From a virus (taxonomy: Duplodnaviria > Heunggongvirae > Uroviricota > Caudoviricetes), in IMG/VR virus record IMGVR_UViG_2703719368_000026: a DNA stretch of 4,038 nt; one strand, written 5' to 3'. Below, piece after piece: positions 1-4,038 of this stretch; the stretch's first letter is position 1; every line of letters starts with the position of its first letter. Both the position numbers and the translations under genes were made by a program. A model generated the notes under the pieces. It worked only from the letters and a program-made list of their open reading frames with translations, did no database searches and was not told the DNA's origin.

Positions 1-1119
1 TCAAATAACCAACTTAACCCATTCCTGACCTCGAGTATCGTTATAGCGATCGGTGGTTGCCTGGACTTTATGTCCTAGTAATGTTTTTGTATCGATACCC
101 TGTGCACGGTACAGCCGTTCTGATAGAGAGCGTTGTTCATGAAATGTTGGCGGAGTTTTTCCTGCTGGTGGAATTACCCCAGCCAGATCCCGTGCTTTGG
201 CAAAGTAGTCGCTCAGGTTGTCTTTACTCATCGGCTTCGGTTGTTTCTGGTGCCGACTATGGATTAGATATGGACTTAATATTCTGTCTCGGCACCCATC
301 AATAACTTCTTTTAACGTTATCCCAATGGCATCACAGCGTAGTGTAAGCGGTAACGCCAGACGCATTCCGGTTTTTCCCTGGGTGATATGCAAGTGTTCG
401 TTCCACACATCTGAAAAACGCATGTGGCAAATGTCATCACGGCGCTGACCAGTAACAATCGCAAGAAGCATTGCGTTACGGATAAAGTGTTTTTCAGGCG
501 TTGCATTGTAAATTTTTTGCCAGTCTTCCATGGTGAGCCTGGCTCTGGTTACTTTAGGGATCGGTTTACGGGTAGCCTCCGGAGGATTCCATCCAGGAGG
601 AACTTCCCCTGCATGCTGTGCTTCTTTATAAATATCAACCCATAATCCACGATTTACTCTCGCTGTACTGACCATGTCTTTATCCAGCCACTCATCCAGT
701 ATTAATGCAAAGTCTCTTACTTCCAGTTCTTTCAATGGGTGGTTTCCCAGACGGGAAACCAGGTATGCAGCCATTCGAGTTTTTTCTTTGTGAGTTGTAG
801 CTGCAATATCTCCATTTTTCAGTCGCGTGTCCTGTATTTTCAGATATCGATCAACCCATGCCTTTAATCTGATACCCCGACGTTTTGTTGCTGACGGACT
901 TTCATCAATTTTGCGCATGAAATATTCAGCTTCTGCTGCAGCTATTCGCTGATTGGCTGTGGAAGCGATTTTTTCTGCCTTACCTTTGTCTGTTCCGAGT
1001 CCGTGAAATTTTCCAGTCACAGGATTTTTATACTGGTAGTAAACTCTGCCAGTTCTGCGATCAAACTTTTCGTAAAGACCGGCTACGTCAGTGCTGTTTT
1101 TTCGTGGCCTCGGTGACAT
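1..1119 (-). CDS. int: Tyrosine site-specific recombinase (lambda-family integrase), complete
   Basis: 372-aa ORF. The C-terminal translation carries the lambda Int catalytic pattern (HEQRSLS ... LLGHK ... DRY, matching H-x-L-R / LLGH / nucleophile Tyr). ATG at 1119 is preceded by an AAGGAG Shine-Dalgarno (plus-strand CTCCTT 1131-1136). The start is overlapped by the 3' end of xis, as in lambda. The stop codon is window bases 1-3, so attL/attP core would lie just outside the window. Confidence 0.9.
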   Translation of the reverse strand: MSPRPRKNSTDVAGLYEKFDRRTGRVYYQYKNPVTGKFHGLGTDKGKAEKIASTANQRIAAAEAEYFMRKIDESPSATKRRGIRLKAWVDRYLKIQDTRLKNGDIAATTHKEKTRMAAYLVSRLGNHPLKELEVRDFALILDEWLDKDMVSTARVNRGLWVDIYKEAQHAGEVPPGWNPPEATRKPIPKVTRARLTMEDWQKIYNATPEKHFIRNAMLLAIVTGQRRDDICHMRFSDVWNEHLHITQGKTGMRLALPLTLRCDAIGITLKEVIDGCRDRILSPYLIHSRHQKQPKPMSKDNLSDYFAKARDLAGVIPPAGKTPPTFHEQRSLSERLYRAQGIDTKTLLGHKVQATTDRYNDTRGQEWVKLVI

Positions 1120-1357
1120 GAGTTAAAATCTCCTTCAGTGCATCATCATCGCCAGTATGAATTTCCGGCGCAATTCCCGTTTCACCAGGCCCAACAAATA
1201 CTGCTCGGCGATCTATCAGCCAACGCCCACGAATTTTTTGTGGTCTTGGAACGATGTATCCTAGTTTTCCGTATTTCACCAGGGTAGTGTTTGTTATTGG
1301 GAGACTGAACCGTTTTGGTTTCCACTCGTCGAGCGTTATCAGGTACTGTTCGCTCAT
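1088..1357 (-). CDS. xis: Excisionase (lambda Xis-like)
   Basis: Translation MSEQYLITLDEWKPKRFSL...GRWLIDRRAVFVGP resembles the lambda Xis N-terminus (MYLTLQEW...) and winged-helix core. ATG at 1357 has a GGAG Shine-Dalgarno 8 nt upstream; the ORF track extends 3 codons further to a GTG at 1366. The 3' end overlaps the int start by 32 nt. Confidence 0.75.
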   Translation of the reverse strand: MSEQYLITLDEWKPKRFSLPITNTTLVKYGKLGYIVPRPQKIRGRWLIDRRAVFVGPGETGIAPEIHTGDDDALKEILTHVTEATKKQH

Positions 1358-1375
1358 GGCTATCACTCCGGAACG

Positions 1376-1407
1376 CGCCAGTTGCAGAATATCAACGACA
1401 ACTGGCG
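1376..1407. repeat. Inverted repeat CGCCAGTTG-n14-CAACTGGCG upstream of xis
   Basis: 9-bp arms at 1376-1384 and 1399-1407 in the 84-bp gap between the 1442..1720 ORF and xis. No U-tract follows on either strand. Confidence 0.5.
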
Positions 1408-1441
1408 ACGGTTGAACATTAAAAATCAGCCTGACTCGGGA

Positions 1442-1720
1442 TCAGTTTTTGCCAGATAAGTAACGCCACGGGCAGGGGATCCCCTGCCGTTCGTATGAAC
1501 GGCGCAAAATCGTGTTGTCGAAGTTGGCTCCATTTCCCCAGACCTGAACAAAAAATTCACCGGAGTTTTCGTCGATAAATTCCCGCAATTGTAACAGTGC
1601 ATCATCTAACGGGATTTCATCGGTCATAATGGCAGATTGCGCTTCGCGTGATTGCTTAAGCCACCATTTAATGGTGTCCCTCGCCGTGTGCTTTCGTGTT
1701 GTGTGCCTGCTTTTTACCAC
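1442..1720 (-). CDS. Hypothetical protein in the leftward operon; possible remnant of a larger gene
   Basis: 92-codon ORF beginning with GTG at 1720; first in-frame ATG is at 1627, and no convincing RBS was seen for either. Contains GNGANFD, which weakly resembles the exo II motif (HNAxFD) of DEDD-type 3'-5' exonucleases, but the ORF is too short for a complete domain. An 18-bp perfect palindrome (1471-1488) lies in its 3' end. Coding status uncertain. Confidence 0.35.
   Translation of the reverse strand: MVKSRHTTRKHTARDTIKWWLKQSREAQSAIMTDEIPLDDALLQLREFIDENSGEFFVQVWGNGANFDNTILRRSYERQGIPCPWRYLSGKN
1471..1488. repeat. 18-bp perfect GC-rich palindrome GGCAGGGGATCCCCTGCC
   Basis: Read directly; centred on GGATCC. 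Lies in the 3' end of the 1442..1720 ORF (encodes QGIPCPW). No U-tract on either strand. Confidence 0.7.
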
Positions 1721-1744
1721 GTCAGGCGAGGTGGTCCCCGTTAT

Positions 1745-1790
1745 TCCCCAACAACAAGGATCTTGTTAATCTGGATATCCCCAACAACAA
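1745..1790. repeat. Two exact 13-bp direct repeats TCCCCAACAACAA (1745-1757 and 1778-1790) upstream of the cargo ORF
   Basis: Read directly: the repeats are 33 bp apart start-to-start. The second abuts the AAGAG Shine-Dalgarno, and the first bracket-repeat copy lies between them. Confidence 0.7.
1763..1780. repeat. Left copy of bracket repeat TTGTTAA-TCTGGATATCC (13-bp inverted repeat partner plus TTGTTAA direct repeat)
   Basis: AATCTGGATATCC (1768-1780) is the exact reverse complement of GGATATCCAGATT (2335-2347). TTGTTAA (1763-1769) is repeated directly at 2346-2352. The core GGATATCC is itself palindromic. Confidence 0.7.
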
Positions 1791-1804
1791 TAAGAGTATT
1801 GAAT

Positions 1805-2320
1805 GTGATCGCTGAATTAACGGCAGCAATGACGGCTATTCGTGAAACCGCCCAGATTGCAAAACTAATGAACGAGGCAAAAACTCAAGCTGAAGTAAAT
1901 GCGGCTATTGGTGAACTGAACTCAAAGCTTGCATCTATTCAGCGCGAATGCGTGTCTCTCGTTGAGCTGGTGGGCACTTATCAAGAAATAAATGCTTCTC
2001 TCAAAGCTAAAATTGCAGAATTTGAAAACTTTGAGGCTCAGACGGAAGGTTATATCCTTAGCCAACTTGAGTCGGGAACTTTTGTGTACTCGAAGGAGGT
2101 AACCGTGAACGGCGGCAGCATAATCATGCATCTTTGTCCAAAATGTTTTGGACAAAAGATAGTATCGATACTTCAGCCATTCCCGGTTAGAGAATATGAA
2201 TTTTTTCATAAAAGCAGGTGCCTGTACTGTAAAAATCAGTTTCTTATGAATAAAAATCCGGATTACGTATCACCTCCATCTATTGAAGAGTTGGCCAGAA
2301 AACTGAACGGCAATCTGTAG
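1805..2320 (+). CDS. Uncharacterised coiled-coil / C4 zinc-ribbon protein (candidate moron or exclusion/defence cargo gene)
   Basis: Long plus-strand ORF convergent with the leftward operon. Most plausible start is GTG 1805 with AAGAG (1792-1796) 8 nt upstream; alternative ATG at 1829. The TTG-initiated extension back to 1652 is rejected. The N-terminal ~100 residues are Ala/Glu/Lys/Gln-rich amphipathic helix; the C-terminus has CPKC-(24 aa)-CLYC. Looks AT-rich by eye relative to flanks, especially the 3' half (not computed). Stop TAG at 2318-2320. Confidence 0.65.
   Translation: MIAELTAAMTAIRETAQIAKLMNEAKTQAEVNAAIGELNSKLASIQRECVSLVELVGTYQEINASLKAKIAEFENFEAQTEGYILSQLESGTFVYSKEVTVNGGSIIMHLCPKCFGQKIVSILQPFPVREYEFFHKSRCLYCKNQFLMNKNPDYVSPPSIEELARKLNGNL
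2133..2156. repeat. Palindrome TTTGTCCAAAA-TG-TTTTGGACAAA inside the cargo ORF (11-bp arms, 2-nt spacer)
   Basis: Read directly. It encodes the LCPKCFGQ zinc-knuckle residues of the 1805..2320 protein. Confidence 0.7.
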
Positions 2321-2334
2321 ATTTTTACTGTTAT

Positions 2335-2352
2335 GGATATCCAGATTGTTAA
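2335..2352. repeat. Right copy of bracket repeat GGATATCCAGA-TTGTTAA
   Basis: Partner of 1763-1780, located 15 nt after the stop of the 1805..2320 ORF. Confidence 0.7.
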
Positions 2353-2359
2353 AGAGCAT

Positions 2360-2383
2360 GCCGGATGCTTGCTTGTGTCCGGC
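2360..2383. repeat. Hairpin-capable inverted repeat GCCGGA-n12-TCCGGC between the convergent cargo ORF and the leftward small ORF
   Basis: 6-bp GC-rich stem with a 12-nt loop in the 114-bp convergent intergenic gap. The minus strand follows with CUCUUU; the plus strand has no U-tract. Weak as a terminator. Confidence 0.3.
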
Positions 2384-2434
2384 GCGTGTGCACCACTCTC
2401 CCCCCGTGGAGGATTCCTTAATTACCAGATTTCA

Positions 2435-2665
2435 TTAGTCAGAGTTTCTTGCTAACCAGCGACGCGCGCCAGATTCGGTTTTAAACGTTTTGCTTTTGGT
2501 ATACGTCATCGCGGTGAACGTGCCGTCCTGGTTGGGAAACACGCCGCACACCAGAGATTCGTTGTTGCCAAGATCAAGAGTATCCATGCTGACCTCATAT
2601 CCCCTTAACGCCGGGGTAGCGGAACAAAAACCTGCTGCATAGTTAAAGTTGAACCCTGCCGTCAT
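2435..2665 (-). CDS. Small hypothetical protein, first ORF downstream of the P_L-like promoter (YdaF/YdaG-position ORF)
   Basis: 76-codon ORF with ATG at 2665 and a possible GAGG Shine-Dalgarno about 9 nt upstream. An internal ATG at 2587 (also GAGG-preceded) would give a 50-aa product. It sits where Rac carries ydaG/ydaF, but I cannot confirm sequence identity from memory. Not Arg-rich at the N-terminus, so not an obvious N-type antiterminator. Confidence 0.4.
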   Translation of the reverse strand: MTAGFNFNYAAGFCSATPALRGYEVSMDTLDLGNNESLVCGVFPNQDGTFTAMTYTKSKTFKTESGARRWLARNSD

Positions 2666-2765
2666 GTTCTTACGCCTCGGGCTGGCTACTTAATCCCTGA
2701 CCACTGCCGGGTAACTCTAGGTATTGCCCTGTATTGTGTGGGACGGGATGGGTTGGTATGGGAAA

Positions 2766-2794
2766 ACTATAGGAAATGCCTAATTGCTTGTCAA
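2766..2794 (-). promoter_or_regulatory. P_L-like sigma70 promoter for the leftward early operon
   Basis: On the minus strand: -35 TTGACA (plus coordinates 2789-2794), 17-nt spacer, -10 TATAGT (2766-2771). Predicted start near 2759, giving a ~90-nt leader before the ORF at 2665. Embedded in operator half-sites. Confidence 0.6.
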
Positions 2795-2829
2795 TAGGCT
2801 GCGCCTAATGATTTGGGTGCGACCTAATA
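2778..2829. promoter_or_regulatory. O_L-like operator cluster (GCCTAAT/ATTAGGC half-sites)
   Basis: GCCTAAT at 2778-2784 and 2803-2809, CCTAATA at 2823-2829, and TAGGC at 2795-2799. Read on the minus strand this is ATTAGGT-n12-ATTAGGC-gca-GCCTATTGACAA-gca-ATTAGGC-atttcc-TATAGT. Confidence 0.55.
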
Positions 2830-2867
2830 GGTGATGGTTTGTGGGAGAGGTAGTAGGAGTTAACTAA

Positions 2868-2887
2868 CGGGAACTAGGAATTTCCCG
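2868..2887 (-). terminator. Possible weak terminator hairpin downstream of racR
   Basis: CGGGAA (2868-2873) and TTCCCG (2882-2887) form a 6-bp stem with an 8-nt loop, 15 nt after the racR stop. The minus-strand sequence that follows (UUAGUUAACU) is only moderately U-rich, so this is weak. Confidence 0.25.
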
Positions 2888-2902
2888 TCGGACCATATAA
2901 GT

Positions 2903-3379
2903 TTAAGTTCCTGTCTTGGTGATGTTCTGGCTTTTCCGTTTTGATTCTTGATTTTTCAGATAGTTAGCTACCTTCATTTCCATTGCGGCAATGTAGGCAC
3001 GAACGTCATGATCAACCCAACTAGGCTCCGTAGCATTTCCAGATAAGAGGAAAGCCACAATTGCTCTTTTTTCATCAGAGGCGGCTTGATAAAGGCTGTT
3101 TATGTCTAAAAGTTCACTTTTTGTATCTGAAGTGGATGGGGTTGGTATGGGGTATTCGTTAAGCCCCCAATGCTCTGGACCAACCACATCAGAAAAGAAA
3201 CGCCATAGTTCTGGAAGTTTGTCTTTACTTATCGAACCTTTCTTAATCCAGTCATGGATTGATGGTGGTTGGACTTTGAAATGACGTGCGATTTCCGCCT
3301 TTGATTTGACGGCTCCTGATGCAATTTTTTTGTTAATGGCCTGCTCTATCGCTCGGCCTAAGTCTTTACCACTAAGCAT
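2903..3379 (-). CDS. racR: Prophage repressor, RacR-like (Cro/CI-type HTH, no S24 peptidase domain)
   Basis: 158-aa ORF, the same length as E. coli K-12 RacR as I recall it. HTH segment SKAEIARHFKVQPPSIHDWIKKGSI. ATG at 3379 has an AGGAGA Shine-Dalgarno about 10 nt upstream (plus-strand CTCCT 3391-3395). Divergent from ydaS with operator repeats between them. Stop TAA at 2903-2905. Confidence 0.85.
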   Translation of the reverse strand: MLSGKDLGRAIEQAINKKIASGAVKSKAEIARHFKVQPPSIHDWIKKGSISKDKLPELWRFFSDVVGPEHWGLNEYPIPTPSTSDTKSELLDINSLYQAASDEKRAIVAFLLSGNATEPSWVDHDVRAYIAAMEMKVANYLKNQESKRKSQNITKTGT

Positions 3380-3406
3380 TGCTTAATAGTCTCCTATGCG
3401 CATCGC

Positions 3407-3474
3407 ATTAGGCAATACCTACTCTCGAAGCGTTAGGCATAGCCTATTGACAATTGCATTAGGCTAAGCCTAAT
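3407..3474. promoter_or_regulatory. O_R-like operator cluster (ATTAGGC/GCCTAAT half-sites, including 17-bp palindrome ATTAGGC-TAA-GCCTAAT)
   Basis: ATTAGGC at 3407-3413; TTAGGC-ata-GCCTA palindrome at 3433-3446; ATTAGGC-taa-GCCTAAT palindrome at 3458-3474, lying between -35 and -10. The 12-mer GCCTATTGACAA (3442-3453) is identical to the minus-strand 12-mer at P_L. Confidence 0.55.
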
Positions 3475-3476
3475 AT
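3447..3476 (+). promoter_or_regulatory. P_R-like sigma70 promoter for ydaS-ydaT
   Basis: -35 TTGACA at 3447-3452 and -10 TAATAT at 3471-3476 with an 18-nt spacer (or CTAATA with 17). Predicted start near 3483, ahead of the GGAG Shine-Dalgarno and ATG 3504. Confidence 0.6.
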
Positions 3477-3503
3477 TATTGTGTGTTTTTTGGAGTTCAT
3501 TCG

Positions 3504-3827
3504 ATGAAAAAAGATAACTATTCATTCAAACGAGCTTGTGCTGTTGTCGGTGGGCAATCAGCAATGGCTAGGCTTTTAGGTGTATCTCCTCCAAGCGTAA
3601 ATCAATGGATCAAAGGTGTACGTCAGTTGCCTGCTGAGAGATGTCCTGCGATTGAACGAGCAACAAAAGGTGGTGTCCTGTGTGAAGAACTTCGTCCTGA
3701 TGTTGATTGGACATACTTACGACGCTCGTCATGTTATTCGCAGAATATGTCGATGAAGCAACCAAATGACGAAAACGATCATACCCGAAGCATCAAGAGG
3801 CAAATGATTCATGAAAATCAAACATGA
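3504..3827 (+). CDS. ydaS: Cro-like HTH regulator, YdaS family
   Basis: ATG at 3504 with GGAG (3492-3495) 8 nt upstream; the ORF track's GTG at 3483 gives a less likely 7-codon extension. HTH GGQSAMARLLGVSPPSVNQWIKG is typical of YdaS/Cro-like proteins. Transcribed divergently from racR, and its 3' end overlaps the ydaT start by 17 nt. Confidence 0.85.
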   Translation: MKKDNYSFKRACAVVGGQSAMARLLGVSPPSVNQWIKGVRQLPAERCPAIERATKGGVLCEELRPDVDWTYLRRSSCYSQNMSMKQPNDENDHTRSIKRQMIHENQT

Positions 3828-4038
3828 GCACATCCGCATGGCGATGAATGCCTGGGCATATCCTGATGGTGAGAAAGTTCCTGCAGCTGAAATAGCCCGG
3901 ACTTATTTCGAACTGGGGATGACGTTCCCGGAACTGTACGACGACAGCCATCCGGAAGCCCTGGCTCGTAATACCCAGAAAATTTTCCGTTGGCTGGATA
4001 AAGACACCCCTGATGCTGTTGAAAAAATGCAGGCTCTG
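3811..4038 (+). CDS. ydaT: YdaT-like protein (cII-position gene of Rac-type prophages), 5' partial; continues beyond window
   Basis: ATG at 3811 opens a frame running to the window end with no stop: MKIKHEHIRMAMNAWAYPDGEKVPAAEIARTYFELGMTFPELYDDSHPEALARNTQKIFRWLDKDTPDAVEKMQAL. This matches my recollection of the Rac YdaT N-terminus. Not in the supplied ORF track because it has no stop in the window. Confidence 0.8.
   Translation, partial: MKIKHEHIRMAMNAWAYPDGEKVPAAEIARTYFELGMTFPELYDDSHPEALARNTQKIFRWLDKDTPDAVEKMQAL

Follow-up and report, generated by a model that had tools for sequence, protein, structure and literature searches.

The window analysed here is a stretch of 4,038 nucleotides from a Caudoviricetes virus record (IMG/VR IMGVR_UViG_2703719368_000026), which sequence comparison identifies as the left end of the lambdoid prophage Sp6, inserted between potC and potB in the Escherichia coli O157:H7 lineage. 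Its left part carries, on the minus strand, the genes for a lambda-type tyrosine integrase (int, 1–1119) and an excisionase (xis, 1088–1357, or to 1366), a 92-codon open reading frame (ORF; 1442–1720), and a DUF1391 gene (ydfA/ydaF-like; 2435–2665, or 2435–2587 in the RefSeq form WP_001414141), the first gene of the operon read from the leftward promoter P_L. Between the 92-codon ORF and the DUF1391 gene lies a plus-strand ORF (1805–2320), which is the second subject of this analysis. P_L (minus strand, 2794 to 2766) and the repressor gene racR (minus strand, 2903–3379) complete the arm. A first-pass annotation, made from the sequence alone, had described the arm as unusually compact; the int, xis, 92-codon, plus-strand and small ORFs and racR were all recovered where it had placed them, as was the distance of about 1.4 kb between xis and P_L. 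By comparison, xis and P_L lie about 6.5 kb apart in lambda, about 5.7 kb apart in a Rac-type prophage and 4.2–4.9 kb apart in sibling prophages, the window arm being 3- to 4-fold shorter than that of every relative examined.

The top matches of the window are complete E. coli O157:H7 genomes, which are 100% identical to it save for a 136-bp deletion in the window, and the whole window arrangement is present in 267 of 5,426 complete E. coli genomes. Besides this deletion, only two substitutions (at 2231 and 2801) separate the window from strain 10671, in which the integrase gene lies 166 bp from potC and the element, about 48 kb in length, reaches potB. The prophage at potC/potB in O157 Sakai is Sp6 (PMC8190617). 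In strain 10671, Sp6 contains replication genes, a Q-type antiterminator gene, holin, lysozyme and spanin genes, and a late region with terminase, capsid and tail genes in canonical order; its portal gene is frameshifted, the J and tail-fibre genes are missing, and the effector genes nleL, espN and espK lie at its right end. From these effector genes we take Sp6 to be CP-933N of EDL933.

The first-pass annotation had proposed a reduced or defective prophage and had advised a search for structural and lysis genes in the rest of the element. Lysis, terminase, head and tail genes are indeed present, and Sp6, which spans about 48 kb and whose late region is full and canonically ordered, is not globally reduced; however, the portal frameshift and the missing J and tail-fibre genes indicate that it is defective, in agreement with the published table of Sp6 defects (PMC2669165). 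In that table, the Sp6 repressor was scored as having no peptidase domain and the ExoVIII-type recombination system as disrupted, with portal, head and minor-tail functions listed as defective and a host-specificity function as absent (Asadulghani et al. 2009, PMC2669165). The experiment suggested for excision, namely mitomycin C induction with detection of excised circles, is already published in the same work: circular Sp6 DNA was seen without mitomycin C, its level did not increase but was lower after treatment, and a marked Sp6 moved to K-12 and integrated at the same locus. As to whether recombination genes absent from the left arm might lie elsewhere in Sp6, none is annotated there save rusA (RusA).

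Comparison by blastn with related elements accounts for the arm piece by piece. Window 1–1680 corresponds, at 99.7–100% identity, to the int–xis–exonuclease 3' end of L002, another potC prophage, while 1697–2357 matches a segment of phage PhiR29_1 (93.5%) and 2442–2760 the DUF1391 region of L006 (92%). The most informative relative is L007, the prophage of strain JNE120393 that occupies the same potC site and whose arm consists of int, xis, an exonuclease gene (814 amino acids, aa), a DUF1482 gene, dicB, the same plus-strand ORF, DUF1391 and P_L. Window 1–1680 aligns to L007 2267–4082 and window 1681–2758 to L007 7001–8078, so that 2,918 bp of L007 are absent at the junction 1680/1681, which shows no microhomology. 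Lost with this segment were exonuclease codons 1 to about 682, the DUF1482 (ydfD-like) gene, dicB and the region upstream of dicB, the deleted genes being named by their Pfam matches (Exonuc_VIII plus Rv2179c-like, DUF1482, and DicB). Since the exonuclease gene is truncated, the event was a deletion in the Sp6 lineage rather than an insertion in L007. The 1680/1681 junction was found in 267 complete genomes and the junction between the plus-strand ORF and DUF1391 in 330, which argues that the ORF was resident before the deletion occurred.

By these alignments, the short arm is the product of one clean 2,918-bp deletion in a Qin-like ExoVIII–dicB arm, and with only about 132 exonuclease codons and DUF1391 remaining, the window is to be classed as a deletion derivative of that arm type and not as an intact member. 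The first-pass annotation had measured the arm against recET and kilR of Rac and red and kil of lambda; these are not the appropriate comparators, as the arm type carries an ExoVIII-like exonuclease gene, DUF1482 and dicB. An Rfam search over the whole window with E values up to 1 gave no match, and hence neither DicF nor another known small RNA is left; DicF was found in the sibling L008 and not in L007, where the search gave only a sub-threshold STnc100-like match upstream of dicB.

The 92-codon ORF is what remains of the exonuclease gene. The remnant itself (1419–1680, minus strand) comprises the last ~132 codons of an ExoVIII-like gene of ~814 aa, with a DEDD-type Rv2179c-like domain, and the ORF reads this stump from a fortuitous GTG past the deletion junction. 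The uninterrupted form in RefSeq, labelled there as a pseudogene 'missing N-terminus', covers positions 56–177 of the 177 in the Pfam Rv2179c-like profile (E = 8e-46) and positions 692–823 of the 823 in the PHROG exonuclease profile, and the stump agrees at 99.7–100% identity with the 3' end that the gene has in L002, where it is intact. Judged by these matches, the ORF is a dead stump left from the C-terminal end of the exonuclease gene. The claim that the arm has no recombination or kil genes is therefore correct as far as intact genes are concerned, with no Pfam or PHROG match to RecE/RecT, Exo/Bet/Gam or Kil in any ORF of 1358–2765, but it missed the exonuclease remnant.

Within the stump, 136 bp are missing from the window at 1459/1460, with 1 nt of microhomology, and the last codons of the stump are frameshifted; none of the E. 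coli genome and phage matches listed for this stretch lacks these 136 bp. The junction gave no match with a 60-nt probe in the 5,426 complete E. coli genomes or with a 30-nt probe in GTDB representative genomes or IMG/VR, and look-ups for the exact frameshifted products found none. This deletion may be real strain-specific decay or an assembly or processing artefact; as it lies in an already dead gene fragment, the conclusions are unaffected.

The intact 814-aa 'exodeoxyribonuclease VIII' (L007 3685–6129) is a chimera, with a RecE-like Pfam Exonuc_VIII region at the N-terminus (residues 56–189) and a DEDD-type Rv2179c-like 3'-5' exonuclease at the C-terminus (residues 632–804). At the NCBIfam cutoff a RecE nuclease domain is missing from it, and no gene for a RecT partner accompanies it. 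Both the usual annotation of this protein and the label 'recombination system' may be misleading.

The plus-strand ORF encodes 171 aa when read from the GTG at 1805, its longest frame starting at 1652. Pfam and NCBIfam gave nothing above cutoff; a coiled-coil match to TMF_TATA_bd, at 18 bits against a cutoff of 29.1, was rejected as spurious, and the assigned PHROG, 1244, is a family of unknown function. The homologue search returned 109 cluster representatives from Enterobacterales (E. coli, Salmonella, Klebsiella, Citrobacter, Enterobacter and others), every named one being 'hypothetical'. In their alignment, a helical N-terminal half is followed by a C-terminal domain in which C111, C114, C139 and C142 are invariant in 26 subfamily members. 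The only solved structure found with the family profile was chain L of PDB 9oox, named 'ring interacting pore 1 (Rip1)' (E = 8.5e-24, residues 6–152), which was also reached by single-sequence phmmer (E = 3.6e-7). The AlphaFold2 model (pLDDT 90.8) has helices at 2–24 and 28–79 and a beta domain at 84–150, and Foldseek matched it to 9oox_L and 9oox_M with a probability of 1.00 (28% identity, target-normalised TM scores of 0.53–0.71), with no other match below E = 0.1 and the next one at E = 0.2.

PDB 9oox represents Rip1 (gp37) of phage HK446 bound to the small terminase of T6. Further homologues were found by tblastn in HK446, in HK620, HK629 and HK630 (hkaP), and in Pseudomonas phages such as JBD30, DMS3 and D3112; an hhalign comparison with JBD30 gp30 gave a probability of 99.4% (E = 4.6e-21), and a literature search for hkaP gave unrelated matches only. 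Four cysteines (CxxC...CxxC) and a SILQP motif, which we take as family hallmarks from our own alignment, are common to the window protein, HK446 Rip1, HK630 HkaP and JBD30 gp30. These profile matches and the predicted fold identify the ORF as encoding a Rip1 homologue. In its N-terminal half, the hydrophobic moment is 0.37–0.44 in 18-residue windows starting at 7–13 and 31–37, with low mean hydrophobicity, values that would be compatible with an amphipathic pore-forming helix but are not diagnostic of one. The ratio of nonsynonymous to synonymous substitution rates (dN/dS) is 0.12 against L007 and 0.16 against PhiR29_1, indicating that the gene is under purifying selection. The A/G difference from strain 10671 at 2231 gives K143, right after the second CxxC, in place of the E of most homologues.

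In a review (PMC13434031) on the work of Patel et al. (2026, Nature 651:1060), Rip1 is described as a single prophage protein, harmless alone, of which a 12-mer assembles around the 11-mer small-terminase ring of an infecting phage and forms a membrane pore, leading to premature lysis; in Pseudomonas phages, escape mutations map to the portal. By analogy, the Sp6 protein may be expressed in the lysogen, sense such rings, form pores and protect the host.

At the deletion junction, 124 bp upstream of the Rip1-like gene were kept (1681–1804, plus strand), and this region is conserved in L007 (94.5%), L008 (89%) and PhiR29_1 (93.5%). It contains an AAGAG Shine-Dalgarno sequence and a candidate sigma-70-like promoter, TTGTTA-17-AACAAT at 1763–1791, which was found in a loose scan with 8 of 12 consensus matches and may serve the Rip1-like gene. 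On the other side of the gene, the intergenic segment that separates it from the convergent DUF1391 gene (2359–2427) is about 80% similar to the sequence just downstream of ydfC in the sibling arms. A GCCGGA...TCCGGC hairpin in this segment, with folding z-scores of -1.4 to -1.5, was not called as a terminator because it has no T tract and a z-score of only about -1.4.

In each of the six contexts examined (the window gene; L007 7124–7639; L003 4262–4990; L010 3441–3935; L011 3498–3992; L012 2501–2995), the Rip1-family gene ran antisense to its neighbours on both sides; the contexts include lambdoid early-left operons, a site beside cI in PhiR29_1 and a site between opposite-strand genes in Pseudomonas phage JBD30. 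This recurrent orientation suggests that expression of the family is deliberately uncoupled from, or opposed to, lytic transcription.

The explanation we favour, with a probability of roughly 0.8, is that the window is the left end of Sp6, in which a Qin-like arm was shortened by one 2.9-kb deletion and the Rip1-like gene was kept together with its upstream region. The ancestral early-left operon of Sp6 was Qin-like, with P_L, DUF1391, the antisense Rip1-like gene, dicB, DUF1482, the 814-aa exonuclease gene, xis and int. One illegitimate 2.9-kb deletion joined exonuclease codon ~683 to a site that lies 124 bp upstream of the antisense gene; dicB, which encodes a cell-division inhibitor, was lost with DUF1482 and the greater part of the exonuclease gene, and the compact 1.4-kb arm was the result. 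The int and xis genes survive, which fits the published spontaneous excision of Sp6, and so do the Rac-type switch, with a repressor that is not cleavable in the SOS response, and the antisense Rip1-like gene with an upstream region of its own.

If the analogy with characterised Rip1 holds, a promoter of its own would probably drive the Sp6 gene in the lysogen, under repression of P_L, and the gene product would stay inactive as long as no superinfecting phage has produced rings of small-terminase or portal protein. The protein would then assemble round the ring to form a membrane pore, and the cell would die before the phage matures. Loss of a toxic division inhibitor together with retention of a host-beneficial defence gene would fit prophage domestication. 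In itself, the compact arm is a case of ordinary decay, derived by deletion from an arm type already known, in a defective prophage that is among the best studied.

Several points weigh against this explanation. L007 is a contemporary sibling (91–95% identity) and not the literal ancestor, and the exact ancestral gene content, for example the presence of dicF, is uncertain. With only 24–28% sequence identity to the Rip1 of solved structure, the Sp6 protein could differ in trigger specificity and even in activity. The upstream promoter is weak by consensus (8/12), and a terminator search and RNA folding over 2315–2440 found no clear terminator after the gene. PADLOC-DB (2023) gave no match for any window protein, as expected of a database that predates the description of Rip1 in 2026, and so lends no independent support. 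Finally, the domestication reading is a narrative.

A stronger form of the favoured explanation, which we advance tentatively and at somewhat less than even odds, is that the Sp6 gene belongs to a distinct Enterobacterales-wide Rip1 subfamily, about 25–29% identical to the characterised proteins, and acts in O157:H7 as an active abortive-infection pore with a trigger spectrum of its own. As the Rip1-like gene was retained while dicB and the exonuclease gene were deleted and the head and tail genes decayed, Sp6 would in this case be a domesticated defence carrier. Such an active pore could change how susceptible O157:H7 is to phages used in biocontrol and to incoming Shiga toxin (Stx) phages.

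Among the rival explanations, the one that survives best, though we consider it unlikely, is that the plus-strand ORF has the Rip1 fold but forms no antiphage pore, being instead a regulator or a packaging factor of the prophage itself, one that binds the small terminase of the same prophage. The low identity to characterised Rip1 (24–28%) leaves room for this, the Rip1 family binds small-terminase or portal rings of the kind that the prophage itself makes, and all database names in the subfamily are 'hypothetical protein'. However, the gene is antisense to all surrounding operons and, in lambdoid phages, located in early and not late regions, which is typical of accessory genes expressed in the lysogen (morons) and not of morphogenesis genes. 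Furthermore, purifying selection has retained it while head and tail genes of the same prophage decay, and its product has the Cys4 domain and the helical N-terminus in common with proteins of proven defence function.

Less probable still is the replacement put forward in the first-pass annotation, in which recombination with another phage would have swapped the whole early-left operon for one foreign cargo cassette. The ORF and its flanks (1697–2357) are 93.5% identical to PhiR29_1, an unrelated backbone in which the gene lies beside cI, and this match indicates that the Rip1-like gene is mobile between lambdoid backbones. Replacement of the operon does not follow from it, for L007, with the same att site, int and xis, has the same ORF between dicB and DUF1391 in an otherwise intact arm, and window 1681–2758 matches L007 continuously through the ORF and DUF1391. 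One breakpoint, truncating the exonuclease gene, suffices to explain the window, and the right-hand junction is more widespread than the left (330 versus 267 genomes). That compactness stems from a collapsed or mis-joined assembly over exonuclease genes repeated in many O157 prophages is hardly credible, for although the exonuclease 3' end occurs in up to 7 copies per genome and the 136-bp deletion of the window was found in no other sequence searched, the lack of support is limited to that deletion, and the 1680/1681 junction and the 4-kb arrangement recur in 267 independently assembled complete genomes, many of them long-read, which also answers the doubt about assembly raised in the first-pass annotation.

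Excision and transfer of Sp6 have been published; what the present analysis adds is the exact reconstruction of the scar and the assignment of the antisense gene to the Rip1 family. A 'hypothetical protein' in hundreds of O157:H7 genomes can be re-annotated as belonging to the Rip1 pore-forming defence family (described in 2026), and the arm as one from which a deletion removed dicB and spared the Rip1-like gene with its upstream region. If the protein is active, it would be a testable phage-resistance determinant in a food-borne pathogen that is targeted by phage biocontrol, and Sp6 a clean natural example of selective gene retention in prophage domestication.

To the right of the Rip1-like gene, the DUF1391 ORF matches Pfam DUF1391 (E = 6.6e-30) and, over residues 9–76 of its long form, PHROG 751. 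The promoter scan of 1300–3600 returned two sites only: P_L at 2766–2794, as previously placed (TTGACA-17-TATAGT, 11 of 12 consensus matches), and P_R at 3447–3476 on the plus strand, the mirror of P_L. Three 17-bp operators of the form ATTAGG-N5-CCTAAT, with at most 2 mismatches, make up the left operator region OL (2768–2784, 2793–2809 and 2812–2828; span 2768–2828), and three with the same palindrome the right one, OR (3407–3423, 3432–3448 and 3458–3474). At up to 3 mismatches, the palindrome has 10 matches in the window against 1.7 expected, a number reached in none of 200 shuffles. A 26-nt inverted repeat (2788–2813 and 3428–3453, 85% complementary) pairs the -35 region and operator of P_L with those of P_R, the two promoters being near mirror images around racR. 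The substitution at 2801 (G/A relative to strain 10671) falls within the spacer of the middle OL operator.

The product of racR, a RacR-type repressor of 158 aa with no peptidase domain, matches the NCBIfam RacR equivalog (246.8 bits, cutoff 200). On the plus strand it is followed by a gene for a YdaS/Cro-like helix-turn-helix protein (3504–3827; Pfam YdaS_toxin, E = 3.8e-30; P22_Cro, E = 1e-8) and by the 5' part of a YdaT/CII-like gene that runs off the window (3811–4038; Pfam YdaT_toxin, E = 3.7e-5; PHROG 163, CII-like, E = 1.6e-31). The region thus has the layout of a Rac-type immunity module, namely RacR, divergent promoters, six operators, and then ydaS and ydaT, and its nucleotide identity by blastn (2600–3834) to L005, a Rac-type prophage at ttcA, is 86%. 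The genes named 'toxin YdaS' and 'toxin YdaT' (L001 23947–24372; window 3504–4038) occupy the positions of cro and cII; since their products also give matches to the P22 Cro and CII-like families of phages, the names as toxins may stem from overexpression phenotypes and not from what these proteins do in the switch. In L007, a RelE/RelB toxin-antitoxin pair (8196–8667) lies between P_L and the repressor gene, where Sp6 has the RacR module only, and this site is another accessory-gene slot in the phage group.

An exact 13-nt direct repeat, GGGTTGGTATGGG, occurs at 2750–2762 and 3139–3151; by our own estimate, about 0.006 such repeats would be expected by chance in 871 bp. The left copy lies just downstream of the P_L -10 element, at the left edge of the Rac-type immunity module, and homology to L007 and L006 stops there, at 2758/2760. 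The right copy lies inside racR and is conserved in L005 and L008. The repeat may be a relic of recombination.

At the other end of the window, the integrase (RefSeq WP_000074985) has both an arm-binding domain (Pfam Arm-DNA-bind_1, E = 3.8e-21) and a catalytic domain (Phage_integrase, E = 3.6e-18) and is 35% identical to lambda Int over 351 aa. The excisionase matches PHROG 629 (excisionase, E = 5e-26) and is named 'excisionase' in RefSeq; its Pfam Exc score of 23 bits is exactly at the cutoff, and its direct similarity to lambda Xis is weak (E = 0.008). With an arm-binding domain, a tyrosine recombinase domain and an upstream xis overlapping int at 1088–1119, the module is of the lambda type. 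Lambda-type Int and Xis are here joined to an immunity region with a RacR equivalog, and the mosaic character ascribed to the window from the start was borne out.

Comparison of the two prophage ends revealed no convincing shared repeat that could serve as the core of the attachment (att) site. The one exact repeat found, the 11-bp TTCTCCAAAAT, belongs to a set of three tandem ~12-bp repeats outside the window and is more likely an arm-type site than an att core. The tandem repeats (TTTCTCCAAAAT, CTCTCCAAAAC and GTTTCCCCAAAAC) lie between potC and int (L001 19901–19937), 64–100 bp to the left of window base 1, with one copy near the potB end (L004 26320–26330), and are probably arm-type sites of the integrase.

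Among known systems, the window is closest to the potC/potB prophage Sp6, with which it shares insertion site, size (~48 kb) and published defects, differing by the extra 136-bp deletion within the exonuclease stump. The intact sibling arms (L007; phage vB_EcoS-640R1, L002; Qin-like, exo-ydfD-dicB-(dicF)-ydfC-ydfB-ydfA) have the same int, xis and exonuclease 3' end at 95–100% identity, and in that of L007 the correspondence extends to the Rip1-like ORF, DUF1391 and the sequence as far as the P_L region. In contrast to these arms, the window lacks the 2,918 bp with exonuclease codons 1 to ~682, DUF1482 and dicB. The immunity modules differ as well, L007 having RelBE and another repressor, L002 cI/DicC and the window RacR.

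Rac of E. coli K-12 shares with the window the RacR equivalog, the YdaS and YdaT homologues and a DUF1391 gene beside P_L, but the window lacks recET, ralR, racC and kilR, and Rac has another integrase and another att site (ttcA, as opposed to potC/potB); the 86% nucleotide identity is limited to the immunity module. With lambda, the window has in common an arm-binding integrase, overlapping xis and int, and tripartite OL and OR flanking the repressor gene, whereas it lacks N, cIII, kil, gam, bet and exo, its Int is 35% identical, and xis and P_L are 1.4 kb apart instead of ~6.5 kb.

The characterised Rip1 proteins (HK446 gp37, 9oox; JBD-type homologues) are, like the window protein, single small proteins of ~165–171 aa with a helical N-terminal half and a Cys4, beta-rich C-terminal half, encoded by prophages on the strand opposite to the surrounding operon; the gene of HK446 and that of HK630 even occupy the same kind of antisense slot as in the window, among the first genes of the P_L operon. 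The window protein differs from them in its sequence (24–29% identity), in its membership of a distinct Enterobacterales-wide subfamily, and in a longer C-terminal tail with a predicted extra helix at 160–168.

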